Shown here piece by piece: positions 3,334 through 62,876 of a stretch of 64,000 nt of DNA. How positions within the stretch are numbered: the first letter of the stretch is position 1; each line of letters begins with the position of its first letter. Below the pieces are notes generated by a model. The model was not told where the DNA came from. It saw nothing but the letters and a program-made list of their open reading frames with translations, and made no database searches. The stretch comes from a virus, in IMG/VR virus record IMGVR_UViG_3300045973_000209, positions 1 through 64,000 of that record, one strand, 5' to 3'. Made by a program: the position numbers and the translations under genes.

Positions 3334-3336
3334 ATT

Positions 3337-3990: not shown

Positions 3991-4006
3991 TTTAAAACAT
4001 AATCAT

Positions 4007-23121: not shown

Positions 23122-23625
23122 ATGAAAGTAAAAGTACAAGTCTTTAATAAGAGTAAAAATGCTCTTCCTGAATATGCAACTATTGGATCTGCTGGTATAG
23201 ATTTATTAGCTGATCTTCAATCATTTCCTAATATTCATCCAAATGATAAAGTATTGATTCAAGCTGGATCTCGTAAATTAATTCCTACAGGACTTCATAT
23301 GGCAATTCCAGAAGGATTTGAATTACAGATTAGACCTAGAAGTGGATTAGCACTTAAGAAAGGAATTAGTATTGTTAATACACCAGGGACTATAGATAGT
23401 GATTACAGAGGAGAAGTTGGAGTAATTCTTATTAATCATGGTGAAGAAGCAGTTGGTATTGGTCAAGGAGATAAAATATGTCAAGCAGTACTTAAAAGAG
23501 TAGATCAACTTGAATGGGATTCTGTAGATAAACTTGAAGATTTATCTAGTACAGATAGAGGACAAGGAGGATTTGGTAGTACTGATAATAAAGAACTCTC
23601 TTTACCTTTTAATCAAAATAATTGA
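23122..23625 (+). CDS. dut: dUTP diphosphatase (trimeric dUTPase)
   Basis: GSAGIDL, RPRSGLA, GTIDSDYRGEVGVIL, RGQGGFGST: the dUTPase motifs in order. Confidence 0.9.
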   Translation: MKVKVQVFNKSKNALPEYATIGSAGIDLLADLQSFPNIHPNDKVLIQAGSRKLIPTGLHMAIPEGFELQIRPRSGLALKKGISIVNTPGTIDSDYRGEVGVILINHGEEAVGIGQGDKICQAVLKRVDQLEWDSVDKLEDLSSTDRGQGGFGSTDNKELSLPFNQNN

Positions 23626-25113: not shown

Positions 25114-25512
25114 ATGAAACAAAATTCTTTTTATTTTAAAGATGCTAATTTAAGAAGTAAATATAATATTAGTTTAACTGCATATAATGAGATATTTATT
25201 ACTCAAAATGGAAGATGTGCAATATGCAATACTCATCAATCTAATTTAACAAGACCATTATTTGTAGATCATGATCATAAAACAAATACAATACGAGGTT
25301 TATTATGCCAAAGATGTAATCTATTTTTAGGTGCTAATAATGATAATATTCATACTATGCTTACTAGAATTAAAAAATATGAAGAGAATATTATTCTTTT
25401 TAAAACTATGATTGACTATTTAAATAAACAAAATCCTTTTACTCCTAAAGTAAAAATAACATATATAACTAAAGATACTATTGTTAAAAAAGATAGTTTT
25501 CCATTTGATTAA
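25114..25512 (+). CDS. HNH endonuclease, recombination endonuclease VII type
   Basis: NGRCAICNT....LFVDHDHKTNTIRGLLCQRCNLFLG: the Endonuclease_7 zinc/HNH signature. Confidence 0.8.
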   Translation: MKQNSFYFKDANLRSKYNISLTAYNEIFITQNGRCAICNTHQSNLTRPLFVDHDHKTNTIRGLLCQRCNLFLGANNDNIHTMLTRIKKYEENIILFKTMIDYLNKQNPFTPKVKITYITKDTIVKKDSFPFD

Positions 25513-25560: not shown

Positions 25561-25593
25561 AGCCCTGCCAGAAGTATCTAGCAGGGCTTTTTC
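25561..25593. terminator. bidirectional intrinsic terminator at the convergence of the two modules
   Basis: AGCCCTGC (25561-25568) / GCAGGGCT (25581-25588), flanked by an A-run upstream and TTTTT downstream; lies between convergent stops at 25512 and 25619. Confidence 0.8.
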
Positions 25594-25618: not shown

Positions 25619-28600
25619 CTAACCCCTAAACAATATATAGTATTTATTAAACTTATTTATTCGTTGTATCTGTTGTACTTTATTCCAAATCGGCACTAAT
25701 TTCACTGTATTTACTTTAAGTTTAGTATCTCCTTTATAAACGCCAGTTGAATATACTCTAGTCTTATCAGTTTGAAATGGATAACTAACTAAACTAGCAG
25801 CTGCTTTATAAAGATCAATTGCAGTACCTTGAACAGCAGCAGGAGATTTAAGAATTTTAGTACCTTCATTAATCACACCAAATGGAGTGTACATCATTAA
25901 TTCACTTAATGCTCTGTCTATTTCATAAGCAGTCAAATCATATCCCCAATCTTTATCATCATCTGTAGGTTTTAAATGTTTAACCATAGCACCGGCAAGT
26001 AAACACATTGCAAGATAACCAAATTCTAATAATGCACGTTTAATATTACCTTTTTCAAAATCATCTAGAGTATTCCAGTAAATTCCTATATTAGTTATAA
26101 ACTTACCATAATCACTCATAATCCTTCCCATTGCACTTTGAAATTGTTTACCTTCCTCATCATCCATTACTTTAGTTCTATTTAATGGACTAGTAAGAAA
26201 TCTATATAAACTTACATATGAACCCTTATCATATTCATCTCTACTTTCAGTCCAAAAACTCTTACCAAATTTAGTACCAAATCTCTTATTCCATCCAGGA
26301 CGCATATACTTTCTAAATTGAATAACCATCTTACCTAATGCTCGTCTACTCATAGTATTTGCATCTTCCTTATTGTAAATACCTTGTTGTTTTTGAACTA
26401 CTTTTACTGCTTTATTTCTAAATTTAGCATATTCATTCTCATTCAACATAGTACTCACTTTCTTTCCATCTATTTCAACTTCATCTTGTAATTGAGCATA
26501 TCCATTTTCATCAAGATAAAAAGCATCATGTAATTTAGGATTAACTTCAAATTTAACAAGACTATCTTTATCTATTACCTTCTTAGCCTCAACAAACGCA
26601 TTTCCTTTACTTATGGGGAGGGTTAAAATATAATCACGTAAATAGTCATGTTTAGCCTCTTTAAATTCTTCTTCTGCAAATCTTGCTTTTAAATATGCAT
26701 CTAATTTAACTTTCTCTTCATCATTTAAAATACTTTGTAATGCTTCTTTATAATTATCAAATTGATAATCAGCGAGAGATTTAATATTACCATTAATAAT
26801 TCTATAATGATCTAACATTGCAAGAGTACTAACATTCTGCATATAATGCTCACCCATATCATTCATAAAATATGCACTACTCCAACTAAATAATTGTTTT
26901 CTTAACATACCAGTTGAAAAGTCTCTTTCATTAGTATTCTGAGTAATATCCATTTTCTTAATAATAGCACCAGTCAATGTTTTAGATCTAGTACTTCCTA
27001 AACTAGAAATAATATCAGGAATAGTGCTAATATACATCTTATCTGCTTTTCTTAAGTTCTCAGATTTAAAATACCAACCAGCAAATGCTTCCATCTTTAT
27101 TTGAATCTTGCCAATAATCACGTTATTAACACCTGCTGTCATATTAAACCACATATTTTTCATAGATGTATATTTCATTAACATCTTGCTAATTGTAGTC
27201 CATGCACCTTCTTCTATATCAAAATTACCATAAAATATAGCTTCAAGCCATTCAGCATAATGTTTTTCAATATTAGTTCCTTCACCATTAACTGTTCCAG
27301 TTATATTCTTATCAAGAATTTTACTAGCAGCTTTGTTCTTTATAATCTCACCAGTACTTTGACGTTTATTGAATTTAAGATCTCTTAATTTAAATAATCC
27401 TAAATCATATTCATGTTTCATATCAGCTTTTACTTTATAAGTAGTAGCCTCTTTTATAAATCTAGTAAATACATCTGCAAGATTATAATTCAATTTACCA
27501 GCATGATAAGCATCATTTGCCGTTTTAATTTCTTTATTTCTATTAAATACTTCACCTATGGTTTTAAATCTTCCTTTACCAGAAGCATTTCCAGCACCAA
27601 CTACTCTTTTTTCATAATCACTTTGAAGTTCGTCTTTAGTTCTATGAGGAATTTCAATTTCTTTTTCTTGTGAGAAATAATCAACCATAGGTATAGTTAA
27701 ACGATAAACCATCTCATCATTTTCACCTACAAAGTGCTCACTTTCATCATGAATTTTATTAACTGCAATCCAATCTTTAACTTTCTCACTAATACTTCTA
27801 GTGTCTTCTCCATGCTCTTGTAATGTAGGAATAAATCCTTTATTAAGAACTGTAGCTCTACCAAAATAGTCAGTATATTTAGTTAATATCTCAACAAATT
27901 TCTGATATAATTTATCATCTTTTAATGCAGTCCATTTAGGATTAATATAAAGATCAGAAGGAGTAGCAAGACTACTATCACCAACTAAAAATCTAACTTC
28001 ACCATCTACTTCTCTAATATTACGTTTTTTCCATGCAGTAAATTCACTTGCACTTAAATCTTCTTTTTTCTGTCTAACTATATTTTCAAATTCTTCATCT
28101 GAAATGTTACGTTGTTCATTCTTATTATACCATGCTTTAGAACCATTATAATAACTTTGACTCTTAGCACCATATGTTTTAATTAAATACTGAAAATGTC
28201 TTTTCTTATCAGCATAAAATTTATCCATATCATATTTCTGGATAAGTTTACCTGTTCTTTTACCATCTTTAGTTTCAAGATATTTACTAAAGTCAGCATC
28301 AGTTAAACTAGTAATATTTTTACCAGCAAATGCTTTTCTTAGTAATCCTTCTAATTCACCTATATTTTTACTTGCATCATCTTCACCATTAATCATGTTA
28401 ACCATATACTGTTTAACCATATTGGCTACAAATGGATTATTAGTATCAGCAAGTGCATCAAGTTTTAATTGTACATAACTTTCATCATCACCTACGTCCA
28501 TAATTTTTCTTAAACCAGCAAGTATTTCAGGATTACTAGTAAATTTTTGTAAGTTTTGTTCATAAAATTTAGTAGATAATGCATCAACTCTATTCTGAGC

Positions 28601-31600
28601 ATTATTAATAGTAGGAAGTAAATTTTGAAGTTGTTTAATTACATCAGTAACTACTTTCTCTTCTGGAAGTAATTCATTACTATCTACTGATTTTAAAAGA
28701 TCAAACGATGTAGCCCCCATAAAGAAAGAATGTGTTCTAGATAGAAATCCTGTGAAACTCTTACGAGTAATAGCATCAGTAAGAATAGTATTCATATCCA
28801 TATTCTCAAACTCATTAAGTCTAGCAAGAATACCACCTTTTTTAGTTTCAGTTTTAGGATCACTTAAATCAAAATCATATTGTTTAAGAACAGTAGTTAA
28901 TCCTGTAGCAAGAGTAGCAAGATCATTTTGTTCAATAAGTACTTGAAATTGTTTATCTCCAAGAAGTTTAACTGCATCTTTTAAAGTACCTACACCAGTT
29001 AGAATTTTAATTCTATTAGCATAACTTCCTGTAGTTTTATCTATGAAAGGTTTAACTGAATCAATAGCATTATTGATAGATTGATTTGTTGAAGAAGTAT
29101 AAGAAACAGGTTTAATATCAGAAATAGGATTAACATAACTATCTGCTAAAAATACTATTTCATCATTAATATTACCTTTAAATGTTTTTCCGTTTCTAGT
29201 ATATGATATAATGGAACCATTTTGATCAGTTACCATATTATATTCATTACCATTGTTTTTATTTTTAGCAATAATATTATAATTATTATCAGGTAATAGT
29301 CTAACATTATTTATTATTACTTTTTGTCTATATTGTTCTCCCTTTTCATCTTCTCCTACATTAAAATCAAAAGTTTTTCCTACGATATTATTAGTATTGT
29401 TTCCAAATCCAATTGGAGAAATAGTTTCATCAATTAATTTAATTAATTCTTCTTTAGTATTAGCTTTCAAATTTTGTTCTTTATCTTGAATATTTCTAAA
29501 TATAGTATAATATCCAATATTTCCTTTATTTATATTTTTTATAGCAGTTTGTTTTATTTCATTAAATCTATCTTTTGTTGAAGATATCGTAGTACTAGTT
29601 TGATTAAAATCTTCATCTGTATCTCCTTCATTACTAAAAGTTGCATTTGCATCTTTCATTACAGCATCTAAATTACCAACATATTCAAAATGAAATTCAA
29701 ATAAATCAGTTCTATTTTGATGTTCTATTCCATCTTTTACTTCATGTAGCCTTTCAATTGGTAATTGATTTTCTTCTGCCCATTTTAATCTAGCAGGAAG
29801 TCCTGTTAAATTAATATTCATTAATGGTTTAGTAACTTTTACATATTCACCATCTAAATTAATTTGAACATATTCTCCAACTTTAAGTTTAGACCATACT
29901 TCAGCAGAATCTAAACCACCAACAGTAAATGCAGTAGTTTTACCTTCTCTAATAGATTGTAAATTACTAGCAATTACTCTAGTAGTAAACATCTTTTTAT
30001 CAATACTTTCTTTCAGATTTAAATGATTAATCATTCCAATATAATCATCTGGACTCTGTATTTCAGTTCCATCTTTAAATTGATTATTATCTTCAAATAT
30101 ACTTCTTTCTTCATTCTCAGATTTCTCAAGTTTATTAATAGGATAATAATACATAGTTCCACTTCTATTACCCCATTCATCAACATCTATAAAACTTCTA
30201 TATGCTTGATATAATTGCCATTTAGTTACTTCATTTTCATCTGCATTCTTTACAACATGATTTAATTTAATAACATCTCTTTCTTTAACTTTATTAGCAA
30301 TCTTACCAGTAGGTATATTATCTAAAGTTTTAATAGGCATTACTATAATACCATCTTTTCTAACTTGAAAATATCTAACTGATCTACCATAACTACCATC
30401 TTCATTCTGAATAGTTTTATCATATCTAGTAAGAAGTGCAGCATTTGGAACTATATTATCATCTTGCCAATTAGACTTAAGGAATCTTTCTTTATAATTA
30501 CTATTAAATATTTGATCACTATATTGAGTCATTTCCTGAGGACGATTCTTTTCATCTTCATCAAACTCAAGATTATTTACTTCATCTAATTTATTATATA
30601 AATGATCACTTAATCCAATACCTTTTTCATTATTTGAACCTTCCATAAATGGTTCATTTGCATAAGAAAATAAAGTATTTGGAATAATCTTACTAAATGA
30701 AGTATATCCAAATCCAAATCCATTTACTATGTATTCATATCTAAGTAAGTTTCTTGCAGTAACTCTTTCAAATTCATTATCACTATACCATAAATCATTA
30801 AATGTCTGAGATATAGTATCAGGAATATCATTGTTTACATACTCAATTTGATGATGACGATATTTCTTTATTTCACTATCTTGTAATCTAGTTCTTAAAT
30901 GATTTAATAAATGATCATTTCCGTAATCATTATGATATCTAAGAAGTTCAACTTGATTAGCTACACTAAGTTGATTAAATACTTCTATACTTTCTGGCGT
31001 TTTCAAATCCAGACTATAATCTAATTCAGTTTCGATACCAAGAATAGTTCTTTTTTCTTCTATACTAAGATCATTTAACCAAGGTAAATCTTTAAGCAGA
31101 CTATTATTCAAATAACTAGTAAGTTTATTAGTTAATTTATCATCATATTTCTTATCTGTAGTATATTTATTTATTTCTTCTTTAATTAAAGTATAGAATT
31201 GACTCTCACCAATAAAATGTCTACTAAATGCTTGTAAACTTAATAGATTACTAAATGTAAGAAAATGTTCAAGAGTAGGATAAGAACTTTTAATAGGACT
31301 ATTCTTTCCTAATAAATATTTAGGAAATATTCTACTCATTGCGCTTGCACCATTTATCTCCAGTATTCCTTGTTCATTAGTTCTTTTAATATCATATAAA
31401 AGCTTACGAGTAACACTAAAAGTAGGGCCAGCGCCAATTTTATCAGTATTAAGAGTATTAGTACCATCTGTAACTGCATCAGAATAAGATTTAAGATGTT
31501 TAAAAGTTTCAAGTATTTGTAACTGATAACGAAGTTGATTTTCTACTTCTTTAAGTCTATCTATATTTTTATCTGTAATTGCACTCTCTACTTCTTTAGA

Positions 31601-34600
31601 TGTTTCATTAGTAAAAGTAATAGTATTAATATTTTTTAATAATTCTTCTGAATTTAAATTAATACCTCTACCATTTTCATATCCTAAATACTTATACTGT
31701 TCATCTTTCATCTTATCTCCACCACCTATGAATATAAGTTTGCCATCTTCAATTGCAGTATCCCATCCTTTAATATGTTTATCTGTCTGTGCAAGAATAA
31801 TTCTATAAAGTAAGGTCTGAAACTTACGTTTAGTTTGTTCTATTTCACTACCTCTTTTTACATTATTTGCATTAAGAAAGAAAGTATCAGTAAGATCTCT
31901 AATTATAGGCTGATTAATTAATGATGTAGAAGTTTCAAAATTAGAACCTAAACTAACTAACATTTTCCAAATACTAACTGTATATTCATTAATATTACTA
32001 GGTAAAGGAAATGCAACGTTATCAAGAATATTTGCAGTAGTTTGTGCAGAATATGAATTTATAAGTTTACCTTCAACATTCTTAAATGTATTAGTAGGAT
32101 TATTACCAATAAATCTATGTGTAACTATTGCATATTCATTTATATTTTCACCTACTCCTCTCTTTTCAAATTTAACATCATCTCCATATAAATCTTGTAT
32201 TTGTTTATGTCTAGCAGAACTAGTAACAAGATATTCTATTACAGGTAATGTACTAAATTTAGATATTTTATTCTTATCATCATTAAGTTTCTCCGTTAAG
32301 TTTATTCTAGCAACTTGTGCAATAGAATTAAATCTATCTAATGCTAAACTTATTCCTTTTAAATCTCTACCTTGATGTGATTTCTCTCTATAATCTTGCT
32401 GACCATCAATAGTAAGATTATTAATCTTATCATTAGTTAAACTTAAACCTTTATCAGTAAGTTTTTTAGCATTAGTAATATCATTAAAGTTAGATGTAGC
32501 TATAGTTTCTTGATAATGATATGGATTCGTAAGAATACCATAATAAACATCCATTATTCTATTTTCTCTAGCTTTCTTAGTATTCTGTTCATTTTCATTC
32601 CAACTAGAAATGATATCAAATATCTTTTTTTCAACGTCTTTAAATTCTGGACTTTCTTTATAATGATCGAAGGTTGCAACATCGTATTTATATATATTGA
32701 ATTTATCTCTAATTAATTTAGTTTTAGTTGCACCAGTTGCTTTAGCAATTTGATCTTCATATGCTTTAATCTCATTTTGATACTGTTGATATGCTTTATA
32801 TTCTAATGGATTATCTTTTATTAATTCAAAATAACTACTCATTGCTTTATTCATACCAACAATAAGATCAGTTATCTCTTTGTTATTATATTCAGTAGAA
32901 AGAACATGAACTAACTGAGAACGATCTTGCATAATAGATTGTACACGACTATTTATATTAGATAAACTATCTCCTTCTATAAATGGAATACGTTCTACAA
33001 TAGGAGTATGATGCTCTTCTCCATTTACAGTTTCAGTAGTATAATTAGTTTGTAATCCATATATAAATGCATATACAGTATCCATATCAAAGTCAGATCC
33101 TGTCTGTGTTACAAAATCATCAGGAAGTACAATACTTGGACCATTATCATCAGGTAAAAATCCAACAACTTTAAATACATATGCACTATATTTGGCTTCC
33201 ATAGGAATACGATAACCAATCATAGTTCTTACTTCATCTGATAATGTATTTATATCTACATATTCTTTCTTACCGTTTGCATCTTCTTTGTAAAATTGTT
33301 TTGCCCATCTAGGAAGTAATACTTCAGCTTCCTGAATCATATTTCCTTTTCCTTCTTTTTCATCATATAATATAGTAGAATGAAGTTTAAGATCTTTTCT
33401 TTGAACTTCTTTACCATCTACATTAGTAGTTGCTTCCATACTTTTATGCCAGTTAACTCCTTCAGTAGAAGTTAATTGTGACCACTTAACACCTTTCTGT
33501 TTATTCATAAACAGACTAGACATCTGTGCAGCTTTAAGTCCAGGAAATTTCTGATTTGTTACACCATTAGTAAACAAACTAGTAAGAATGTTCTCCCATT
33601 TATTACTATTAGTATTAAAAAAGATAGGTAACATTGCTCTACCTTCATCATCTTTAGTAATACTATAAATAATATTCTTAGTTAAATTACGATCAATTCC
33701 TTCTTTTTCAAGTATAGTTGAAATATTATCATAATTTAATTCTCCAATAATTCTACCATTTTTATCAACTCTAACATCAAAAGGAGTTAAAGTTCTACAT
33801 GCATCTTGATATATATTACTATTTATTAAATCAAAATAATGTTGTTTAAGTGCATTACCTTGTAACTTCTTATCTTTAACTTTGTATTCTAATTCATCAG
33901 GAATATTTTCAATAACTTTTTTAACAAACTGACGACTCATAGTAATAGAATCTTCATACAATGAGTTAGAAACTTCTAATTGCATACGTAATCCTTCATA
34001 ATTATAACTACGAGTAGCTTTAGTAAGTTCTTGCTCTAATGTATTATCATCTGTAATATTACCATCTTCATCTGCAATATTTGCAATATATAATGAACCT
34101 TCCTTTTCAGCACTTCTTAAATTTATTTGAGATAAGTTTAATTTATCCATCATCTTATCAAGATTCTCTAATTGAAGATCTTTAATAAGAGCAGGAGTTA
34201 ATACAACTTCAGCATTTTTAACTTGTGTAGGAACCATCTTCTGAAGAAACTCATTATAGTCCATACTATAATAAAAGTTCTTCTGCATAGATGCAAACTT
34301 AGTAGTATCTCCTCTATCTAATTCTTGACCATTTCTAACTTTATTAATAATAGTTTTATAATTATCAGTTAATCCAAATCCACTGATTCTTTTTACAAAT
34401 TCATCAAATCTAATCAAAGATACAGCATTAGCACTATCATTAGATAAGTAAGGAGAAACTATATTATATACTTCTCTTTCAGCATCAGTAAATAATTTTG
34501 GATTCTTTAATTCTTCTTCTGTATATTGTTTATTTAATCTACTAACTCTTATATCTTCTAATTTATATCCTAATCCAAGAGTTACAGTATTAATCTTATG

Positions 34601-37600
34601 TCTATATACTTTTGATTTTAATTTAACATCATTTATAGTAGCACCATAATAAATACCTTTATGTACACTAGGTATACCATTTGCTATAACTTGCCCACCT
34701 CTTTTATTTAAGTCAACATTACTTTTATAATCTGCTACACTTCCATAAAATAATCTTACTTGTTCTATATTAAATAAATAACTATTTAATGCATATTCAG
34801 CAATAGCATGATTAAACTGTTTATCTTTAAGAATATAACTCTTTTCTTCTCTATTTAAATTCTCTTTTTTAACATATGCTTTCTCAAGAAAATCTTTATA
34901 TACAGTTAAAGTATTATTTGCATTTATAATTTGAGAACTAACAAAATTAAGTATAAATTGTTCTAATCTGTTCTTAAATGTGCTATTCACATCTTCTTTA
35001 TTTAAGGGGGTGTGTAAAGCATTGTTTAATGAATCACTAGTAAGAAGATGTTTAGTAAAATTAATACCATTAATAAATATATCACTAAATATAGTTTGAG
35101 CACTACCAACTTTAATAGTAAGATTATTAAGATCAAATATATTTCCACTACGTTTAGTATCTAATCCATAATGACCATTTTCTTTCTTAACAAATTGACA
35201 GTAAACTTTATTACCATTTTCATCTTCTTTATAATGATAATATATTTGACCAGATTGAGTACCATCAAGAATTTCTTGTTTAACTAAAGGATTCTGATTT
35301 TCATCTACAAGAACTCTTCCATTATTATCTAATTGAAATAGAATTTGTTTAGCAGTATTCATTGCTATAAGTTCATCAACTGCATTTAAATAAATTGCTT
35401 TAAAAATAGGAATTTCTCTAACTAATTTTAATCCTTCTTCTCCTTTAGTATTAATACCAATTAATAGATTCTCAAAATCAGCACGACTAAGTTCAACAAT
35501 AGGAGATTCAAATAGTCTAGTATTTTTTCTATCTGAAGGATTTATTAAAGGAAATATAGCAGTTAATTTTTTACTAACATTATTCTCTTTTATAGTTTCA
35601 CCTCCACCAAAATAATATATAAGATTTTTTAAAGTCCAATCATGTTTAGTTAAATCAGCATATTCATTTGCAAATCCTTCATTTAAATCTTTAGTTCCTT
35701 CATATCCAAAAGACTTGATTCTTCCAAGATTTTCTTTATTAATTCCAGTTGCTTGCCTAATATTATTAACTATAGTATAATCAAAAATTCCTCTACCTTT
35801 CTTTACTATTTCACCTTCAACTATTTGATCACCCCATAATAATAAAGAATGTTGATTAGATAAAATTTTAGTATGATTAACTAACGCATTAAAAACTACT
35901 TCATCAGTATCTTCAAGTTTCTTAAAGAAATTACTTAGAAAACTAGGATTAGTAGCATCAAAAACTAAATTATTATTAAGATTAGTACTACTAAAATTAA
36001 AATGATCTTCTCTAAAATATTTTACTTTACTAGCAAATCGTAATAGATTACCAAATTCATTAAATGCAACTTTAGGATTAGTTTGAAGTTGAACAATATA
36101 TGGTACATTTTTCTCTTTACTATAATCTTTACCAGGTATTCCAGCAATATTACGTAAAGGAGCAATCATAGTATTAATGAAAGTATCTTGATAATTCTTA
36201 AATTCATAATTAAGATTATCAATACTAACTTCCATTCTAAGAAGATTATATAATTGTACTATTCCAGCAGCAGCTTCAGCAGGAAGTTTACTAAAATTAG
36301 AACTTAATGCAGAAACTTCTTTATACTGTTTAGTATATTCATCATACCAATCTTTATCAAAGAATCCATTTTCACCTTTACTAACTATATTATTAGTCCA
36401 TTCATTAGCAATAAAATATTCTATTGCATTTTTATTTCCATGATTTATATTAATTTCATGTAAAGTATCAGATTCAGTACTAACTTCTCTAGTTAAATCT
36501 CTATATGAATCTAGGATTGCTTTATCAAATGATGTAAACCAAGCATTAAGTAACTCAGGATTATTACTAAGCTCTTTATGAATATTATATAGACTTTTAG
36601 ATAAAACTGTATTTTGATCTGAAGCATAATTGAATAATGCAGTAAGCATATCTTCTTTAGTAAGACTACCTCTCATTAAATCAATAAGTTTATTACCTAC
36701 TTCAGAAAAATTTAAAGTATTAGCAAATCCAGTAGGTGTTTTTTCATTGGTTCTATAAACTACCTTACCATCTACAATAGTTGAAAGATTTGGATTTACT
36801 TCATAAGTTCTATTAATAAGATTTTTAATTTGATCAGCAACAGTACTTAATGGATTCTTAGTAAGTACATCAGTTTGATCCCATGATTTCTCTAATAATT
36901 CAATATCTTGAATATAATCTTCTTGTTCATTAATATTATAACCATATTGATTACTTAAATGAATACGAAAATACTTCCAGAATTTATCGTTATCACGAAG
37001 TTCACGAAGTGCTTTTAATATAAGAGTTTCTTGATCTGGAGTAATATTACCATCTTTTTTACGTTGTGTATATTGCAACCAAAATTCTTTTCTTATTTCA
37101 GTTCTAATTTGATCAACAATAACATCACTACCTTTAACTCCTTTATATTTAGATGCAAGTCTTTCTATAGTAATATTAGAAAGAACATTAAGAATATTTT
37201 TTTCTTCATCTATTTCAAATGGAGAACCAGTAAGTTCTTTATTAACAGTAGAAGAATATGAAACTGGTTTAAATGTTTTACTATTTGAATCTTTTTCAAA
37301 ACTTATAATAGGTTTCTCAACTCCATCTTCTCCAAATTCATCTGCATATTCTTGTGCAGTAGTATCTGTGGGAATTTCTCCTAATAATTCTTTACTAGTA
37401 TTACTAATAGAAGATATTTTTTCTCCTCCAATAAATTGATTAAATATATTATTTAACTCATCTAATTTAGTACTAATACCAAATGATTTAGCAATCTCAC
37501 GTATAAGATCTTTTAATTTACTCCAGAATGTTTTACCAGTAGTATCTTCAGTGCTTTTAATAGTATCAAGATATCTAGCAAAATCAATATCAGTAAGTCC

Positions 37601-40600
37601 ATAAGTAAGAATTTCTTCACTATCTTTCATATTTAAGATAGTAAGAATTTTATTATCTATATCATTCTTATCTACTTTCTCACTTAATTCTTTATATTCA
37701 GGAGTATTTTTAATATCATCTCTAAACTTATCTAAGGATTCAGTTAATTTAGTCTGTTCTTCTTTACTTCTAGTTCCATTCAAAGCATGAATCATATCAT
37801 GCATTAAAGCAAGAGTTGCAGCAATTTGATCTTTTTTATATAAATCAACCCATGCCTGAGTAATACTAATAGAATTCTTACTAGGTGTATAATATACCAT
37901 AACTGGATTACCAGTCTCTTTATCTATCTTCTTACCAGATACAACTCCATTAAATTTAATTTTACCAGATCTAATAAGAGTATCTATAAATTCAGTAGCA
38001 AAATTATATCGTTTATCTAACTGATAATCTAAAGTAAATTTACGTAAACTAGGAGTAGTATTAGTTTCAGTTTTAATTTTACTAGTATCTATATTAAGTG
38101 ATAATGGAGTTTGATTACCAGTACCATCTTGTCTTAATGTAAAATTACTAATCTTATTTCCTTTTTTATCAACTAATTGTCCTATATCAGTAACAACTGT
38201 ATTACTATTAACTAAATATTCTTCATAACTATTGTGTTTATTACCAAGAATATCAGTAAAAGGTTTTCCACCAAGTAATTGATAATTAACATTTCTATTT
38301 AAATTACCTAATGCTTCAGTAAATTCACTAGGAGTAATAACTTTAGTTATTTTATTCTTACCTTCAGTTCTTTCAGTTCTAAATTTCTTACTATAATAAT
38401 CATATACATAATAATCATTTCCAGATTTAAATCTTATATCATGATTACTAACTACTAACTCATTAGTATGACCTTGACTTTCATGTTGGATATTTAAAAC
38501 AGTTTTAAGTCTATCAGTAATAATTTTATCATTTTTCTGATGTTCTTCAACTTTAACTTGATCTTTTGAATTAAATGCAGCAACTGCAAGTGCTTTCTCT
38601 TTACCAAGATTAATAATAAGATTACTTATTTCTTCTAATACTTTATCACTATTTTTATCTGTAAGTAATTTGCCATTAAGTGAATTAATTTGTACAGGAA
38701 CTACAGTCTTATTTCCTCTATTATCAGAAACCCCCATAAGAAAAGAAGATGAGAATGTCTGTGTTAAACCTTGTTTAACAACAGTATCTTTATTATCTCT
38801 AGTATTTTCAACAACTGTTTTGTTACTATTATTCTGTATAATATAAAATTGAACTTTACTAGGATCATTAACTACTGAAAGGTTTCTCCAGATAATATTA
38901 CCTTTACTATCTTGACTTTTAACTAGAGTACCAGAAGTAATATGTTTAACTTTACTAGTAATAACTTTATCGATATCTGTTCCAAGTATTTCTCTAATCT
39001 TCGTATATCCAATTTGATCTCTAATTAATTTATCCTTCCAGCGAATCACATTTGCAATAATATCATTTCTTTTAAATGCTATAGGAGTAACTCCTTCAGT
39101 ATTCATTCCATGAAATAATACATTTGAAATATGAATAAACGCTGTCATTCCATCATTACTCCTAAGATTTATACTTTTAGGAACTAAATCATATAATATA
39201 CCATGAACATCAGCATCTAATAAGTCACTATATGCTTGTGATACTTCAGCACTACTTGCCTTCATTTTCTTAGCATTATAAAATGCTTGAATTAATGGCA
39301 TGAGTCTATTGATATATTCTAACTTACTATTTGTAGTACTTGCATCATTAATTATATCATCCGTCCAATCTTTACCATCAAAATTATACTTAACTCCATT
39401 GTGAATACCAGCTAAAGTAGGAATAGCCACAAGTGGAATACCGCCTTTATCATTTACAAGTTTCACAATGATAGGCACGTTTTTTGAATCATTTTTATTT
39501 TGGCTGAAGCCTTGTAGACCAGATAATTCAGTATTGATCTGCACAATTACCTGTGAATTTTCAGCTACACCGTTCAAAAGAGTAGTTACACGTTCTAAAT
39601 CTTTATCATTAACAACTTGATCACCATTTTCATTAGTAGTAAAATCAACTTTATATACAAAAGTATTTACTACATCTTCACCACCAGTTGGAGTAAGATT
39701 ATTAATATTGTTAATTTGAAGTTCTTTGTACTCATCATTAAGACCATAAACCTCTATAAGTTTATCTATTGTAATCTTTGCTAAAGTCTTATCAGTATTA
39801 TAGATACGTTTCTGTCCAGTTTCAGGGTTAATTTTACTATTACGAATTATAGTATATGCTTGTTTAAGTGCATCAAAATCTTCTCTTAATTTATTTGCAC
39901 CTACTAATTCACCATATCTTGCAGCAATAGTTTCAAATTTAAACTGTGTACCATGATCAGGAGATTCTTTAAATAATGGATTTTCTCCATCATTAACAAT
40001 ACCTGTTATCCATTTATTGGCTCTATCAACTACATTTGTAGTTATAGGGTTCTGTGATGTGAAGTCAACTATATTTTTAGAAGCCTCAGTATTTAAACTA
40101 TCTTTAAATGCTTGAGCATTATCAATATGTTCTTGTGCTTTATTACTTCCTTCTGGAGTTGTTCCTTTAGTTTCAACAATATATCCTGCATTTACTAAAA
40201 GTTCATTTATAATTTCTTCAAGTAAATTACCAGATTTAAACTGATTAAACTGATTATTTAATTCATCACGAAGTGCAGTTAAATTAGCAGGAGTATATTC
40301 TTTTAATAATTCACTATCATTTACTAATTGAACTAATCTACCAAAAGGTAATGCTTCATTAGGATTTAATGCTAAATTGGTAACTTCTTGTGTAATATAT
40401 TTATTAGCTTCAGAATGTCTTTTTCCAGTAAATTTTCCTTCTACACCAGTAACTCCAACATCTTTTAATATTTTATTAAAAGTATTAGTTAATTCATTAT
40501 TTTTAGTAGTAATATAACTATCACTTTGTTCTTCAGTAATTTTAGTAGTTTTCTGTTGTGCTAACCAAGTACGTCTTTGATTAAGTACGTCAATATATGC

Positions 40601-43093
40601 ATCCAATTTCTCTTTATTAAGTTTTTTAACAGGAGATTTCTCATCTGCAAAAGGATCAACTTTACTTTTATTAAGATCTTCTATTGTTTTATCAATAGCT
40701 GCAATTTTTTCATCTAATGTTGTAGTATTATCTACTTTAAGATCAACATTAGTCTGTTCTCTTATCTTATTTCTAAATGTATCAAATGCTTTACCATATT
40801 CAATATCAACTGCTAATTTTAATTCACCTTCAGTTTTAGAAATACTTTTATTAGTATTTACTACTTCTTCATAAAGACTATTATCTTTATGTAAAAATAT
40901 ATCATATAATCTTGCTTCTGCTTCAGAATTAATAATATCTTCTACTGAATTAAAATCACCAGTAGCTTGTGTATCTTTTAATTCTTTATCTTTAATTTTA
41001 AATTCATCTTTATATACTTGTGCTCTTTCTTGCATTACTTTTTTAGCAATAGGATCACTTTCTTTACTAATTTCATTATCTATAGTTGCAATAACTCTAG
41101 CATTAATAAGATTATCTAAAGTACCATCAAAGTCTTTATCTTTGTTCTGTTCTTTAAGTGCTTCTAATGCAGGATTATTAGTTCTAAGATTTGCTGACTG
41201 CTGTCTTGCATTATCACGAAGTTTAGTAGTTTGTTTAATCTCAGCTTTTTGATTTATTGCTTCACCAATTATAAGATCTCTTAAATGTTCTTTTCCAGTA
41301 GTAGCAACAAATATCTTACCATATACATTTTTATATGTATGCTCTGCATCAACTATATCAGATTTAATCTTAGCTAAATCTTTATCAAAATTACCATCAC
41401 TACTAACACCCATTTCAATCATTTTTTGTTTGAAATTTGGATGCTCAATCATATCAAGAAGTAACTGAACATTACCTACTCTACTAGCATTAAAACCTAA
41501 TGTATAACCCATTGAAGTTTTAATTCTATCAATTCTTTGTTCTTGACTTTTTTTAATTTCCTCAGGAGTTCCTTCAAATTTCTTATTGGTATTTATATCA
41601 ATACCATCTTGAGTTTTCTTTATATTATCAACATGATTTAATATACTAACGTATCTATTATTAATTTCTTCAATTCTCTGATCAGTTCTATGTGGATCTT
41701 TATAGTCTTTAACTATTTCATCCATACGTTCAACAGCTCTAGTGGCGCCACTAAATATAACACCACCTGCAAATCCCCAAAATGCTTGTTCCCATGTAGA
41801 TGGATTTCTAGCATATACTTTAAATCTATCTATAAGATCATTATTATCAACTATAATATTACCTTGATCATCTTGATGACTATTACCACTATTTGTCATC
41901 TGACCAAGTAACATTTTGCCATAATGATTACCTTCATTCTGAGCAACAGCATTTACTAATTCTTCAACACCTTCTCCAACTTGTTCACCTAAGAATATTT
42001 TTGCTCCTTTAAGAAAAGTACCAGTATTAAACTGTGCTTTTGCAACTGCTTCAGCACCTTGAACTCCAGTTGCAGTAGCTTGAGCAACTTTAGTTGCTTT
42101 AGTAGTTAACCAATCTTTAACTCTAGTTTCAACTTTAAATCCTTTAAATATTGGTGCTAATTGCATAGCGTCAAATACTACGTTGACTGCATTAGTTGCA
42201 TAATCTCTCCATGCTCCTTTAGATGCAATAAAATTAGCAAGTTCTACTTTACTAGGAGTTCTACCTTCACTAAGAAAATCTTTACCTACTTCAGAATTTA
42301 ATACTTCATTATATTTTTTATCATCTTGAAACTGATTTAGTGCATCAGTTTTAACATTATTAAAAGTCTGATTAGATTCTCTAAAGTTTTCAGCATTACG
42401 CATAGTTATAGCACTATGAGTAAGTTTCTGCCAATACTTTTCAGTATCAAATACACTAGCAACTGCATTTACACCTTTAGAAATACCTCGTTCAAGTTTA
42501 GTTGCATCTTGAATTTCAGACATTGCTTTAAGTGCTTTAGCAAAATATCCTGCGACTTTTTCTTCTCCAAGTGCAGGAATTAACATTCCTAATGAACTAA
42601 AAGTACTTACACCATTATTTGCCCACCATGCGGGATCTTTCCAATCAAAACTTTTATTAGGATTATATCTTAAAATAGGAAATTTATCTTGTAAAGTATT
42701 GGTTAAATCATTAGCAAACTGAGTAAGAAAATTATTAAAATCGGCATCTCCTTTAGTAAGTTCATTATGTATTGCTTGAGGTACACCAATTATTCCCCCA
42801 ATTCCACCAACAACACCTTGTCCAAGTATTTCTCCTACTATTCCTTGAGTAAACATATTACCAAACTTGCCAGCAACACTTTGATTAGTTGCAGCTTCAC
42901 GATCAATTGCTTCAGGATATACATTAGGAACAAATCTTTTAAAATGATCTGTAGGTACATCAAAGTTAAATCCTGCTAAATTAGATTCAGTAGGATTACT
43001 AGAAGGAAGTGTACCATATTTAGATGGATCTAAAAGAGTAGGCTTCGGAGTGTCTTTAACTTCGAACTTAGTAGGATCAAGTAGTTCAGGCAT
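25619..43093 (-). CDS. giant virion protein (5,824 aa) containing a DxDxD two-barrel RNA polymerase signature
   Basis: Uninterrupted 17,475-nt ORF. GSDFDMDTVYAF with DFDMD encoded at 33080-33094 (aa 3334-3338). N-terminal Gly-zipper GIVGEILGQGVVGGIGGIIGV. Hydrophobic segment near the C-terminus. Confidence 0.75.
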   Translation of the reverse strand: MPELLDPTKFEVKDTPKPTLLDPSKYGTLPSSNPTESNLAGFNFDVPTDHFKRFVPNVYPEAIDREAATNQSVAGKFGNMFTQGIVGEILGQGVVGGIGGIIGVPQAIHNELTKGDADFNNFLTQFANDLTNTLQDKFPILRYNPNKSFDWKDPAWWANNGVSTFSSLGMLIPALGEEKVAGYFAKALKAMSEIQDATKLERGISKGVNAVASVFDTEKYWQKLTHSAITMRNAENFRESNQTFNNVKTDALNQFQDDKKYNEVLNSEVGKDFLSEGRTPSKVELANFIASKGAWRDYATNAVNVVFDAMQLAPIFKGFKVETRVKDWLTTKATKVAQATATGVQGAEAVAKAQFNTGTFLKGAKIFLGEQVGEGVEELVNAVAQNEGNHYGKMLLGQMTNSGNSHQDDQGNIIVDNNDLIDRFKVYARNPSTWEQAFWGFAGGVIFSGATRAVERMDEIVKDYKDPHRTDQRIEEINNRYVSILNHVDNIKKTQDGIDINTNKKFEGTPEEIKKSQEQRIDRIKTSMGYTLGFNASRVGNVQLLLDMIEHPNFKQKMIEMGVSSDGNFDKDLAKIKSDIVDAEHTYKNVYGKIFVATTGKEHLRDLIIGEAINQKAEIKQTTKLRDNARQQSANLRTNNPALEALKEQNKDKDFDGTLDNLINARVIATIDNEISKESDPIAKKVMQERAQVYKDEFKIKDKELKDTQATGDFNSVEDIINSEAEARLYDIFLHKDNSLYEEVVNTNKSISKTEGELKLAVDIEYGKAFDTFRNKIREQTNVDLKVDNTTTLDEKIAAIDKTIEDLNKSKVDPFADEKSPVKKLNKEKLDAYIDVLNQRRTWLAQQKTTKITEEQSDSYITTKNNELTNTFNKILKDVGVTGVEGKFTGKRHSEANKYITQEVTNLALNPNEALPFGRLVQLVNDSELLKEYTPANLTALRDELNNQFNQFKSGNLLEEIINELLVNAGYIVETKGTTPEGSNKAQEHIDNAQAFKDSLNTEASKNIVDFTSQNPITTNVVDRANKWITGIVNDGENPLFKESPDHGTQFKFETIAARYGELVGANKLREDFDALKQAYTIIRNSKINPETGQKRIYNTDKTLAKITIDKLIEVYGLNDEYKELQINNINNLTPTGGEDVVNTFVYKVDFTTNENGDQVVNDKDLERVTTLLNGVAENSQVIVQINTELSGLQGFSQNKNDSKNVPIIVKLVNDKGGIPLVAIPTLAGIHNGVKYNFDGKDWTDDIINDASTTNSKLEYINRLMPLIQAFYNAKKMKASSAEVSQAYSDLLDADVHGILYDLVPKSINLRSNDGMTAFIHISNVLFHGMNTEGVTPIAFKRNDIIANVIRWKDKLIRDQIGYTKIREILGTDIDKVITSKVKHITSGTLVKSQDSKGNIIWRNLSVVNDPSKVQFYIIQNNSNKTVVENTRDNKDTVVKQGLTQTFSSSFLMGVSDNRGNKTVVPVQINSLNGKLLTDKNSDKVLEEISNLIINLGKEKALAVAAFNSKDQVKVEEHQKNDKIITDRLKTVLNIQHESQGHTNELVVSNHDIRFKSGNDYYVYDYYSKKFRTERTEGKNKITKVITPSEFTEALGNLNRNVNYQLLGGKPFTDILGNKHNSYEEYLVNSNTVVTDIGQLVDKKGNKISNFTLRQDGTGNQTPLSLNIDTSKIKTETNTTPSLRKFTLDYQLDKRYNFATEFIDTLIRSGKIKFNGVVSGKKIDKETGNPVMVYYTPSKNSISITQAWVDLYKKDQIAATLALMHDMIHALNGTRSKEEQTKLTESLDKFRDDIKNTPEYKELSEKVDKNDIDNKILTILNMKDSEEILTYGLTDIDFARYLDTIKSTEDTTGKTFWSKLKDLIREIAKSFGISTKLDELNNIFNQFIGGEKISSISNTSKELLGEIPTDTTAQEYADEFGEDGVEKPIISFEKDSNSKTFKPVSYSSTVNKELTGSPFEIDEEKNILNVLSNITIERLASKYKGVKGSDVIVDQIRTEIRKEFWLQYTQRKKDGNITPDQETLILKALRELRDNDKFWKYFRIHLSNQYGYNINEQEDYIQDIELLEKSWDQTDVLTKNPLSTVADQIKNLINRTYEVNPNLSTIVDGKVVYRTNEKTPTGFANTLNFSEVGNKLIDLMRGSLTKEDMLTALFNYASDQNTVLSKSLYNIHKELSNNPELLNAWFTSFDKAILDSYRDLTREVSTESDTLHEININHGNKNAIEYFIANEWTNNIVSKGENGFFDKDWYDEYTKQYKEVSALSSNFSKLPAEAAAGIVQLYNLLRMEVSIDNLNYEFKNYQDTFINTMIAPLRNIAGIPGKDYSKEKNVPYIVQLQTNPKVAFNEFGNLLRFASKVKYFREDHFNFSSTNLNNNLVFDATNPSFLSNFFKKLEDTDEVVFNALVNHTKILSNQHSLLLWGDQIVEGEIVKKGRGIFDYTIVNNIRQATGINKENLGRIKSFGYEGTKDLNEGFANEYADLTKHDWTLKNLIYYFGGGETIKENNVSKKLTAIFPLINPSDRKNTRLFESPIVELSRADFENLLIGINTKGEEGLKLVREIPIFKAIYLNAVDELIAMNTAKQILFQLDNNGRVLVDENQNPLVKQEILDGTQSGQIYYHYKEDENGNKVYCQFVKKENGHYGLDTKRSGNIFDLNNLTIKVGSAQTIFSDIFINGINFTKHLLTSDSLNNALHTPLNKEDVNSTFKNRLEQFILNFVSSQIINANNTLTVYKDFLEKAYVKKENLNREEKSYILKDKQFNHAIAEYALNSYLFNIEQVRLFYGSVADYKSNVDLNKRGGQVIANGIPSVHKGIYYGATINDVKLKSKVYRHKINTVTLGLGYKLEDIRVSRLNKQYTEEELKNPKLFTDAEREVYNIVSPYLSNDSANAVSLIRFDEFVKRISGFGLTDNYKTIINKVRNGQELDRGDTTKFASMQKNFYYSMDYNEFLQKMVPTQVKNAEVVLTPALIKDLQLENLDKMMDKLNLSQINLRSAEKEGSLYIANIADEDGNITDDNTLEQELTKATRSYNYEGLRMQLEVSNSLYEDSITMSRQFVKKVIENIPDELEYKVKDKKLQGNALKQHYFDLINSNIYQDACRTLTPFDVRVDKNGRIIGELNYDNISTILEKEGIDRNLTKNIIYSITKDDEGRAMLPIFFNTNSNKWENILTSLFTNGVTNQKFPGLKAAQMSSLFMNKQKGVKWSQLTSTEGVNWHKSMEATTNVDGKEVQRKDLKLHSTILYDEKEGKGNMIQEAEVLLPRWAKQFYKEDANGKKEYVDINTLSDEVRTMIGYRIPMEAKYSAYVFKVVGFLPDDNGPSIVLPDDFVTQTGSDFDMDTVYAFIYGLQTNYTTETVNGEEHHTPIVERIPFIEGDSLSNINSRVQSIMQDRSQLVHVLSTEYNNKEITDLIVGMNKAMSSYFELIKDNPLEYKAYQQYQNEIKAYEDQIAKATGATKTKLIRDKFNIYKYDVATFDHYKESPEFKDVEKKIFDIISSWNENEQNTKKARENRIMDVYYGILTNPYHYQETIATSNFNDITNAKKLTDKGLSLTNDKINNLTIDGQQDYREKSHQGRDLKGISLALDRFNSIAQVARINLTEKLNDDKNKISKFSTLPVIEYLVTSSARHKQIQDLYGDDVKFEKRGVGENINEYAIVTHRFIGNNPTNTFKNVEGKLINSYSAQTTANILDNVAFPLPSNINEYTVSIWKMLVSLGSNFETSTSLINQPIIRDLTDTFFLNANNVKRGSEIEQTKRKFQTLLYRIILAQTDKHIKGWDTAIEDGKLIFIGGGDKMKDEQYKYLGYENGRGINLNSEELLKNINTITFTNETSKEVESAITDKNIDRLKEVENQLRYQLQILETFKHLKSYSDAVTDGTNTLNTDKIGAGPTFSVTRKLLYDIKRTNEQGILEINGASAMSRIFPKYLLGKNSPIKSSYPTLEHFLTFSNLLSLQAFSRHFIGESQFYTLIKEEINKYTTDKKYDDKLTNKLTSYLNNSLLKDLPWLNDLSIEEKRTILGIETELDYSLDLKTPESIEVFNQLSVANQVELLRYHNDYGNDHLLNHLRTRLQDSEIKKYRHHQIEYVNNDIPDTISQTFNDLWYSDNEFERVTARNLLRYEYIVNGFGFGYTSFSKIIPNTLFSYANEPFMEGSNNEKGIGLSDHLYNKLDEVNNLEFDEDEKNRPQEMTQYSDQIFNSNYKERFLKSNWQDDNIVPNAALLTRYDKTIQNEDGSYGRSVRYFQVRKDGIIVMPIKTLDNIPTGKIANKVKERDVIKLNHVVKNADENEVTKWQLYQAYRSFIDVDEWGNRSGTMYYYPINKLEKSENEERSIFEDNNQFKDGTEIQSPDDYIGMINHLNLKESIDKKMFTTRVIASNLQSIREGKTTAFTVGGLDSAEVWSKLKVGEYVQINLDGEYVKVTKPLMNINLTGLPARLKWAEENQLPIERLHEVKDGIEHQNRTDLFEFHFEYVGNLDAVMKDANATFSNEGDTDEDFNQTSTTISSTKDRFNEIKQTAIKNINKGNIGYYTIFRNIQDKEQNLKANTKEELIKLIDETISPIGFGNNTNNIVGKTFDFNVGEDEKGEQYRQKVIINNVRLLPDNNYNIIAKNKNNGNEYNMVTDQNGSIISYTRNGKTFKGNINDEIVFLADSYVNPISDIKPVSYTSSTNQSINNAIDSVKPFIDKTTGSYANRIKILTGVGTLKDAVKLLGDKQFQVLIEQNDLATLATGLTTVLKQYDFDLSDPKTETKKGGILARLNEFENMDMNTILTDAITRKSFTGFLSRTHSFFMGATSFDLLKSVDSNELLPEEKVVTDVIKQLQNLLPTINNAQNRVDALSTKFYEQNLQKFTSNPEILAGLRKIMDVGDDESYVQLKLDALADTNNPFVANMVKQYMVNMINGEDDASKNIGELEGLLRKAFAGKNITSLTDADFSKYLETKDGKRTGKLIQKYDMDKFYADKKRHFQYLIKTYGAKSQSYYNGSKAWYNKNEQRNISDEEFENIVRQKKEDLSASEFTAWKKRNIREVDGEVRFLVGDSSLATPSDLYINPKWTALKDDKLYQKFVEILTKYTDYFGRATVLNKGFIPTLQEHGEDTRSISEKVKDWIAVNKIHDESEHFVGENDEMVYRLTIPMVDYFSQEKEIEIPHRTKDELQSDYEKRVVGAGNASGKGRFKTIGEVFNRNKEIKTANDAYHAGKLNYNLADVFTRFIKEATTYKVKADMKHEYDLGLFKLRDLKFNKRQSTGEIIKNKAASKILDKNITGTVNGEGTNIEKHYAEWLEAIFYGNFDIEEGAWTTISKMLMKYTSMKNMWFNMTAGVNNVIIGKIQIKMEAFAGWYFKSENLRKADKMYISTIPDIISSLGSTRSKTLTGAIIKKMDITQNTNERDFSTGMLRKQLFSWSSAYFMNDMGEHYMQNVSTLAMLDHYRIINGNIKSLADYQFDNYKEALQSILNDEEKVKLDAYLKARFAEEEFKEAKHDYLRDYILTLPISKGNAFVEAKKVIDKDSLVKFEVNPKLHDAFYLDENGYAQLQDEVEIDGKKVSTMLNENEYAKFRNKAVKVVQKQQGIYNKEDANTMSRRALGKMVIQFRKYMRPGWNKRFGTKFGKSFWTESRDEYDKGSYVSLYRFLTSPLNRTKVMDDEEGKQFQSAMGRIMSDYGKFITNIGIYWNTLDDFEKGNIKRALLEFGYLAMCLLAGAMVKHLKPTDDDKDWGYDLTAYEIDRALSELMMYTPFGVINEGTKILKSPAAVQGTAIDLYKAAASLVSYPFQTDKTRVYSTGVYKGDTKLKVNTVKLVPIWNKVQQIQRINKFNKYYILFRG

Positions 43094-62872: not shown

Positions 62873-62876
62873 AATA

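Follow-up and report, generated by a model that had tools for sequence, protein, structure and literature searches.

The stretch analysed here comprises 64,000 nt of viral DNA (IMG/VR record IMGVR_UViG_3300045973_000209, positions 1–64,000; hereafter the window). It contains a single giant open reading frame (ORF) on the minus strand (25619–43093) that starts with ATG and encodes 5,824 amino acids (aa) without an internal stop, for a product of 664.3 kDa and pI 5.8. A first-pass annotation, made from the letters alone, had described it as one uninterrupted gene that closes a minus-strand operon and fuses the DxDxD signature of a virion RNA polymerase (RNAP) to several thousand residues of unknown cargo. 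Our results divide the product into an N module (aa 1–~1890), an acidic linker (~1890–1990), an RNAP module (~1990–4500), an insert (~4505–4655) and a C module (4661–5824). From the observed homology, module order, motifs and synteny, we consider it highly probable that a highly divergent crAss-like (Crassvirales-type) phage has its entire 'transcription block' encoded here in a single gene. Identity of the ORF does not exceed 54% with any of 1.8 billion cluster representatives and is <32% with every deposited phage. Feature coordinates below are window positions on the minus strand unless marked otherwise.

Base composition gives a stop probability of 0.096 per codon, i.e. about one stop per ~10 codons; the remaining five frames across the ORF contain 263–1,307 stops, and the probability of finding no stop by chance over its whole length is ~1e-255. 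Stop-codon reassignment was considered and rejected, because the ORF is open under the standard code and TAA, TGA and TAG all serve as stops in the window (24, 6 and 2 times, respectively, n = 32 ORFs). A second assembly, the Logan contigs of SRR35489367, is 100% identical to the window ORF: one contig covers aa 1–2365 and the other the last 3,468 aa, with an overlap of ~30 nt. The open frame thus stands as first annotated, and the agreement of two assemblies excludes assembler artefacts. More broadly, an assembly or sequencing artefact could have merged two or three conventional genes through a lost stop, a frameshift error or a chimeric join. This might be argued from the record of the exact 5,824-aa protein, a JGI/IMG singleton cluster on one 92.7-kb contig, from the break of the Logan assembly within the ORF (window ~35997–36025) and from the nearest relatives, which are interrupted by an in-frame TAA (L007) or TAG (L014). 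However, the first module junction lies well inside the contig covering aa 1–2365 and the second well inside the other, both in 100% identical sequence, and the break falls inside the RNAP module (aa ~2357–2365), where homologs run colinear without interruption. Several unrelated fully fused ORFs also exist, and the chance probability given above speaks in the same direction, which makes a merger of separate genes very improbable. The 30-mer at the Logan break is unique in the window, and coverage or strain variation are candidate causes of the break.

The central part of the product matches the virion RNAP of crAss-like phages. In phmmer, tblastn, blastp and HMMER comparisons, the RNAP module (aa ~1990–4500; 29594–37126) corresponds to phi14:2 gp66, PhicrAss001 gp50 and the N-terminal ~2,500 aa of crAssphage gp44. 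The motif DFDMD (aa 3334–3338; 33080–33094), contained in GSDFDMDTVYAF beginning at aa 3332, lies exactly where it had been annotated. A phmmer search of the Protein Data Bank (PDB) with a 2,100-aa slice around it matched phi14:2 gp66 (6VR4) with E = 1.9e-19. Residues 856–1395 of gp66 align to aa 2746–3354 (33032–34858), on both sides of the gp66 Connector (1095–1238), which joins two double-psi beta-barrels (bioRxiv 10.1101/2020.03.07.982082); the aligned segment spans both barrel regions, and a weak extra segment covers gp66 1612–1674 in the trigger-loop region. The catalytic motifs are in register (TQTGSDFDMDTVY in the window and TKTGSDFDIDKMY in phi14:2 gp66), with DFDMD aligned to gp66 1361-DFDID-1365, in which each of the three Asp is essential (bioRxiv 10.1101/2020.03.07.982082). 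By alignment, DFDMD is thus the predicted catalytic metal-binding motif of a gp66-type two-barrel virion RNAP, as the first-pass annotation had proposed; its assignment depended on homology around aa 3334, and homology to gp66 is present there at the E-value given.

Position 4 of the motif is Ile or Val in all crAss-like RNAPs according to the gp66 paper (bioRxiv 10.1101/2020.03.07.982082). The Met of the window, also found in representatives P0002, P0005 and P0008 (Phe in P0003, Leu in P0025), appears to be a minor departure from this rule, since the three Asp are aligned and the family motif is retained. We also weighed the alternative that DFDMD is a chance DxDxD string in a giant structural or tail protein that is no polymerase. 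Three other D.D.D strings do occur in the ORF by chance, and there is no match in Pfam or PHROGs. Nevertheless, this alternative is refuted by the alignment to gp66, an RNAP of known structure, which extends over 600 residues and brings the motifs into register; hundreds of homologs also keep DFDxD at the aligned column, and the alternative retains only a very small probability. Related sequences are numerous: tblastn matched 91–94 Crassvirales records, with matches annotated as RNAP subunits and all <32% identical, and an exhaustive HMMER search with the polymerase core (aa 2651–3750) returned 1,082 homologs (271 at <1e-30).

The modules on either side of the polymerase are also of a known kind. 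In blastp comparisons, aa 18–5819 of the window ORF match, in the same order, adjacent gene pairs of reference phages (crAssphage gp45 + gp44, crAss002 gp32 + gp33, and the pairs of R. jaberico, cr271, cr8 and ctbg; phi14:2 g066 plus the C-terminus of g065). The block lengths sum to 5,398–7,369 aa in these phages, so a total of 5,824 aa is ordinary. The first-pass annotation's 'several thousand residues of unknown cargo' is not supported: most of the length has counterparts across Crassvirales and ~150 aa (4505–4655) are lineage-specific, and by sequence the flanking modules are best described as conserved Crassvirales modules, not as novel cargo.

The N module begins with a conserved domain (aa ~40–720; 40934–42976) homologous to the N-termini of crAssphage gp45, crAss002 gp32 and the R. 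jaberico 'ZnMc' protein (blastp, 25–28% identity, E 1e-30 to 1e-46), for which PDB, Pfam and PHROG searches gave no matches. Sequence searches of the PDB with the N module (aa 1–2100) and the C module (aa 4101–5824) likewise gave no meaningful match, and PHROGs and Pfam searches with eight overlapping 1,000-aa tiles gave only a sub-threshold PARP_reg and one unknown PHROG. Within the N-terminal domain lies a glycine-zipper hydrophobic segment, GIVGEILGQGVVGGIGGIIGV (aa 84–104; 42782–42844), which is kept in homologs. By comparison with the N-terminal domain of N4 gp50 (PMC13434306), it is a candidate membrane-insertion element. The only other strongly hydrophobic 19-aa windows of the whole protein belong to a second helix near the C-terminus (aa 5687–5705; 25979–26035), also kept in homologs and followed by an acidic DDD patch; it includes GYLAMCLLAGAMV (aa 5692–5704; 25982–26020). 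Both segments had been recognized in the first-pass annotation, with slightly different spans (42785–42844, short by 3 nt, and about 25985–26025).

The most widely conserved part of the C module is an all-alpha C-terminal domain (aa 5160–5824; 25622–27616), delimited by sequence and by an AlphaFold2 (AF2) model with a predicted local distance difference test (pLDDT) score of 69, and ending in ...NKYYILFRG. Among 151 proteins, 83 contain it, in every case as the very C-terminal part, and blastp matches it to phi14:2 g065 937–1406. Foldseek found no match for it in the PDB (best E = 0.55, TM score <0.15), so no hidden enzyme can be assigned to it, while in BFVD it matches crAss-like proteins only, including phi14:2 S0A048 (= gp65) with E = 2.6e-14. 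Between the RNAP and C modules, alignment gaps at 4501–4655 mark the lineage-specific insert (aa ~4505–4655; 29129–29581), for which we found no Pfam match and no detectable family. P0002 and P0003 carry different inserts at this site and P0008 none. Small accessory domains, differing from one relative to the next (P0002, P0003, P0013, P0014 and P0022), appear to be inserted often at the RNAP/C junction.

The N module ends with a zincin-like domain of the minigluzincin/SprT-like core type (aa ~1684–1889; 37427–38044), recognized by alignment, profile and AF2 model. The first-pass annotation had seen no catalytic motif other than that of the polymerase. This needs correction, because a zincin-type HDMIH is present at aa 1765–1769 (37787–37801), although its catalytic Glu is replaced by Asp (aa 1766, codon GAT at 37796–37798). 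In a 14-homolog alignment (A1), H191, H195 and E253 (a Glu 58 residues downstream) are invariant, and the catalytic Glu is present in all sequences except the window ORF; in the HMM alignment, HExxH is found in 18/18 other sequences. The GAT codon is identical in the Logan contig, well inside its 100%-identical sequence, and L014, the closest syntenic relative, has HEILH, which suggests that the change is recent in the window lineage. Profile matches in the PDB were weak: an internal virion protein of a phage (9sfn_G) reached E = 1.6e-3, and the minimal zincins selecase, abylysin and Spartan lay between E = 3e-3 and 2e-2. The AF2 core has pLDDT 75–92, with selecase as the best, weak, Foldseek match (E = 0.2, probability 0.87), and against N4 9pnr the model reached only E = 6. 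Because the two His and the third zinc ligand Glu are present but the catalytic Glu is not, and because the Foldseek match is weak, we use the label 'zincin-like' only. Its sequence suggests that the domain of the window ORF is probably an attenuated or inactive protease.

The N module and the polymerase are joined by an acidic/polar linker (aa ~1890–1990; 37124–37426), where AF2 gives a pLDDT of ~32 for aa 1890–1914 and the alignment is gappy. Relatives have an ORF boundary at this place: P0003 starts at window-ORF aa ~1988 and P0004 at ~1917, and the gp45/gp44-type boundary also maps to aa ~1890–1990. When the ORF boundaries of relatives are mapped onto the window ORF, as the first-pass annotation had suggested doing, they fall in two linker regions. 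Each junction carries a copy of a short motif, KPVSYSST (aa 1942–1949; 37247–37270) at the first, shared with the closest clade, and KPVSYTSS (aa 4661–4668; 29090–29113) at the second, where it marks the start of the C module and is shared with P0002, P0003 and P0008. KPVSY[ST]S[ST] occurs at module starts in the closest clade (three times in P0002, and in P0003, P0004, P0005 and P0008) and, in L013, at residues ~96 of an ORF that encodes the C module separately. As a repeat within the window ORF it does not exceed chance, with 7 such diagonals vs 3.3 in shuffled sequence. We therefore treat it as a marker of module starts and as a candidate processing site only.

These junctions bear directly on whether the product is a maturation polyprotein, i.e. 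a chain that is cut in the procapsid at the two linkers, by its own zincin-like domain or by a head protease, into proteins of ~218, 313 and 134 kDa such as are encoded separately elsewhere. In favour of cleavage, split relatives have their ORF boundaries precisely within the two linkers, KPVSY[ST]S[ST] stands at both junctions and recurs where modules begin in the closest clade, the chain contains a zincin-like domain of its own, and Drobysheva et al. have proposed that fused forms are cleaved. By contrast, the window ORF is the only one in which the catalytic Glu has become Asp, the junction motif is not kept beyond the closest clade and does not exceed chance as a self-repeat, and the N4 virion RNAP works uncleaved. 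Moreover, at exactly these junctions split relatives carry paired terminal Cys (see below), as though the pieces needed joining rather than separating. On this evidence we consider maturation cleavage rather unlikely, and less probable than the intact chain proposed below.

We then examined how common the fusion is, classifying the best 150 cluster representatives of the 1,082 HMMER homologs with four module queries. The RNAP and C modules are joined in 92 representatives, 29 contain the RNAP module alone, 24 combine the N and RNAP modules, and five contain all three (P0010, P0014, P0025, P0068 and P0143); P0058 and P0071 are also complete as judged by motifs. Fully fused public ORFs range from 4.8 to 6.2 thousand aa, among them P0025 (6,244 aa, the largest), P0058 (5,715 aa), P0010 (5,642 aa), P0014 (5,557 aa) and P0071 (5,182 aa). 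Fusion is thus a natural state, in which several relatives carry all modules in one ORF, and a one-ORF fusion is uncommon but not unique. The closest relatives (46–54% identity) are unfused at the first junction, which indicates that fusion and fission are evolutionarily labile. The literature also mentions such forms: the fused block of crAss-like phages has been noted as 'a single huge polyprotein' (bioRxiv 10.1101/2020.03.07.982082, section 8; Drobysheva et al., citing Yutin 2018), and crAss-like RNAP genes of up to '~6000 aa' are a hallmark of the group (PMC10136315; PMC7886860). Polymerase and companion modules do form one polypeptide here, whereas they are separate genes in most relatives, but the rarity implied by the first-pass annotation does not hold in view of the fused ORFs in public data and of these reports (bioRxiv 10.1101/2020.03.07.982082; PMC10136315). 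Both the fusion and a size of ~6,000 aa were already known, and the window ORF adds a very divergent example.

Several relatives have unusual gene structures. L007 (an ENA ERZ27257423 contig) and L014 (ENA ERZ1292626, 'Hain_H43'), at 40–50% identity to the window ORF, have one stop each in the N module. In L007 it is an in-frame TAA at 4728–4730, corresponding to about aa 858 of the window ORF, and in L014 an in-frame TAG at ~9040–9045, just before the zincin domain; in both, homology continues in frame. Past its TAG, L014 has a restart of the M-x-Cys type, 'NMACVYRIKG', and its scaffold has a gap of Ns at the N/RNAP junction. In L013 (a Logan SRR20000429 contig, P0004), five small ORFs (59–134 aa) precede the RNAP ORF in place of the N module, which would accordingly be encoded elsewhere or absent. 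A word-indexed protein search with the N-terminus gave a single match (P0001), and one with the junction region gave none, probably because such a search is too insensitive for an AT-rich, divergent protein, and scans of IMG/VR with single-protein queries returned no relatives.

Comparison of fused and split relatives reveals a distinctive distribution of cysteines. Of the ORFs of the 150 representatives (P0002–P0151), 101/121 whose start falls at an internal junction have a Cys among their first 7 residues, compared with 0/29 of those opening with the N module (p = 3.5e-18); 41/53 whose end falls at an internal junction have a Cys among their last 10 residues, compared with 0/97 of those closing with the C module (p = 2.3e-26). 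The typical start of a downstream ORF is M-x(1-3)-Cys. The family is otherwise Cys-poor (0.25%): in several N+RNAP proteins of 4–5 thousand aa the C-terminal residue is the sole Cys, and five fully fused proteins contain no Cys at all. The window ORF has only three (aa 2632, 3099 and 5697), none at the junctions. Known phages illustrate the pattern. In phi14:2 (L009), gp67 ends in ...TIC, gp66 begins MAC... and ends in ...ECK, and gp65 begins MSC..., with no other Cys in these three proteins; in crAssphage (L002), gp45 ends in ...SCM and gp44 begins MSC...; and in PhicrAss001 (L015), gp47 ends in ...RCNS, gp50 begins MSKRC... and ends in ...KICGANTLYEL, and gp49 begins MAKKC.... The N-module gene of PhicrAss001, gp47, lies on the strand opposite gp50/gp49 and still follows the rule. 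A nucleotide-level signal for translational coupling behind the terminal Cys was rejected for this reason, as gp47 and gp50 follow the pattern from opposite strands. A possible strand-turn-strand equivalence between the fused junction and the concatenated split termini of reference phages was also tried with MAFFT and dropped, because the alignment was unconvincing.

The simplest reading of the sequence pattern is that covalent bonds may join the split modules end to end again. Disulfides between subunits are known from other parts of the PhicrAss001 virion (PMC10172136), and no earlier description of the terminal-Cys pattern, or of covalent concatenation of ejected cargo proteins, was found in the searchable literature. 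If terminal Cys re-link the split pieces, a continuous chain of ~6,000 residues would be the normal working form. More tentatively, and at somewhat less than even chance, the working unit of the block may be such a chain in all Crassvirales: split products would be re-joined by terminal Cys–Cys bonds, presumably disulfides that form in the virion, Cys would have been purged from the remaining sequence to avoid mis-pairing, and fused ORFs would be the peptide-bond version of the same chain.

We compared the window ORF with several known systems. The phi14:2 proteins gp67/gp66/gp65 contain the same polymerase family, with DFDxD in register, and the C-terminal domain as gp65, and their block is likewise the last of the structural operon, convergent with replication genes. 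However, phi14:2 has three abutting ORFs (1,797 + 2,180 + 1,421 aa; sum 5,398 aa) vs one in the window, its zincin HExxH follows the polymerase (gp65 aa 245) whereas that of the window precedes it, its motif is DFDID instead of DFDMD at only ~23% identity, and its split termini each carry a Cys that the fused junctions of the window lack. The module order of the window (N, zincin, RNAP, C) is identical to that of crAssphage (Carjivirus communis), crAss002, R. jaberico, cr271, cr8 and ctbg. In crAssphage, gp45 is described as 'RNAP-associated protein fused to zincin protease' and gp44 as 'RNAP catalytic subunit fused to unknown subunit'. Pairs of the crAssphage type differ from the window ORF in consisting of two ORFs (1,957 + 4,070 aa) 70–170 nt apart, at 25–31% identity to the window, in keeping HExxH and in having Cys at the gp45 C-terminus and the gp44 N-terminus; the pairs of R. 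jaberico and cr271 measure 2,018 + 4,098 aa and, at the upper end, 2,749 + 4,620 aa. Fully fused metagenomic homologs share the whole plan, with a Gly-zipper N-terminus, HExxH, DFDxD and a ...YYKLF-type C-terminus in one ORF. All of them keep HExxH and several lack Cys, whereas the window ORF has HDMIH and three Cys. They are only 24–32% identical to the window ORF, so the fusions are probably independent.

The likeness to N4 gp50 (3,500 aa) is functional and architectural only: both are giant chains with a hydrophobic or membrane-interacting N-terminal domain and a central polymerase, and gp50 is ejected by threading through the tail (PMC13434306). The gp50 polymerase is T7-like and single-subunit whereas the core of the window ORF is, by alignment, of the gp66 two-barrel type, the HExxH domain of N4 is C-terminal, and PDB sequence searches gave no match between the window ORF and gp50. 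Membership of the N4-type giant virion RNAPs was rejected, as their T7-like core is replaced here by one that aligns with the two-barrel type. In Thermus phage P23-45, a two-barrel virion RNAP is fused to a very long ejected structural polypeptide of 5,002 aa (bioRxiv 10.1101/2022.12.01.518664). There the polymerase stands at the N-terminus of a siphovirus tape-measure protein, and the comparison with the window ORF is by description only.

The neighbourhood of the giant ORF fits a crAss-like phage. Upstream of it on the same strand are genes for a CrAss_Ring_1 protein, a 1,991-aa tail protein and two ~800-aa proteins; the opposite strand encodes helicases, ThyX, a ligase, a DUF932 protein and a dUTPase; and the closest relative, L014, is syntenic with the window. 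An upstream ORF of 805 aa ends 1 nt 5' of the giant-ORF ATG, and a 12-bp GC-rich hairpin (7 GC) with a T-run, resembling an intrinsic terminator (25561–25588; 1 found vs 0.3 expected), lies ~30 nt past the stop, between the convergent gene blocks. The giant ORF therefore closes the minus-strand block, in agreement with its first annotation as the last gene of the operon. On the plus strand, a 132-aa Endonuclease_7 ORF (25114–25512) is the final gene; it ends ~50 nt from the shared hairpin, which indicates that the two gene blocks are convergent. The dUTPase is a 167-aa ORF (23122–23625, plus strand). On the minus strand, the 1,991-aa protein (47990–53965) contains four Fib_succ_major (PF09603) repeats (E = 1.8e-55); its gene has that for CrAss_Ring_1 on one side and the pair of ~800-aa ORFs on the other, a slot that crassviruses use for a large tail 'stabilization'/muzzle-type protein. 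An 890-aa ORF (60236–62908) has a Pel9A-like pectate-lyase beta-helix and is likely a tail depolymerase.

Together with what has been reported for phi14:2, PhicrAss001 and N4, these observations suggest how the chain might work. Synthesized late in infection, the protein would be stored in the capsid as cargo, in line with the place of its gene at the end of the structural block, after the CrAss_Ring_1, tail and cargo-sized ORFs; the three cargo proteins of PhicrAss001 sum to 694 kDa per set vs 664 kDa for the window ORF. It would then leave through the tail before the DNA does, in a partly unfolded state. Its hydrophobic N-terminal part may engage the envelope or the ejection channel, and the polymerase would refold in the cytoplasm and transcribe early genes. 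Between the two routes raised in the first-pass annotation, proteolytic maturation in the capsid and unfolded passage through the tail, we lean slightly towards a chain that enters and leaves the capsid uncut, like the 'beads on a string' of N4 gp50, with any separation of modules coming only after entry. The terminal-Cys pattern, the degraded protease motif and the gp50 precedent favour this form over cleavage in the capsid; gp50 acts uncleaved, with an N-terminal domain containing membrane helices, an RNAP and a C-terminal domain with an HExxH subdomain (PMC13434306).

Several points weigh against the transcription-block interpretation and the intact chain. Packaging, ejection and polymerase activity are inferred from homologs, at 23–31% identity to cultured phages. 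The linkers at both junctions are polar and of low complexity and would be accessible to proteases. In zincins, Asp sometimes partly replaces Glu, and slow activity may remain in the window domain. The two assemblies are probably from the same sample and hence independent at the assembler level only. Disulfide re-linking of the split relatives derives from sequence statistics, and their terminal Cys could instead bind metal or another partner. Finally, the gp66 authors, Drobysheva et al., regard fused versions as 'likely cleaved' (bioRxiv 10.1101/2020.03.07.982082).

In brief, the first-pass annotation is partly supported: the RNAP and the fusion hold, while novelty and 'unknown cargo' were overstated. 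For Crassvirales, the natural fusion fixes the order and a 1:1:1 stoichiometry of the three modules of the RNAP block, and a zincin motif without its catalytic Glu offers a natural test of whether the domain is needed in processing. The contrast with split relatives exposes the junction-specific terminal Cys and makes the packaging and ejection of polymerase proteins of ~0.65 MDa directly testable. We regard the junction-cysteine rule, with the fused ORF as its natural control, as the most interesting outcome. If split modules are indeed re-linked, the fused ORF would be a control, and a kind of Rosetta stone, for the covalent joining of cargo proteins that are ejected. Such concatenation would explain the fixed order and stoichiometry in which the modules leave the capsid, and reduction in the cytoplasm could then release them.

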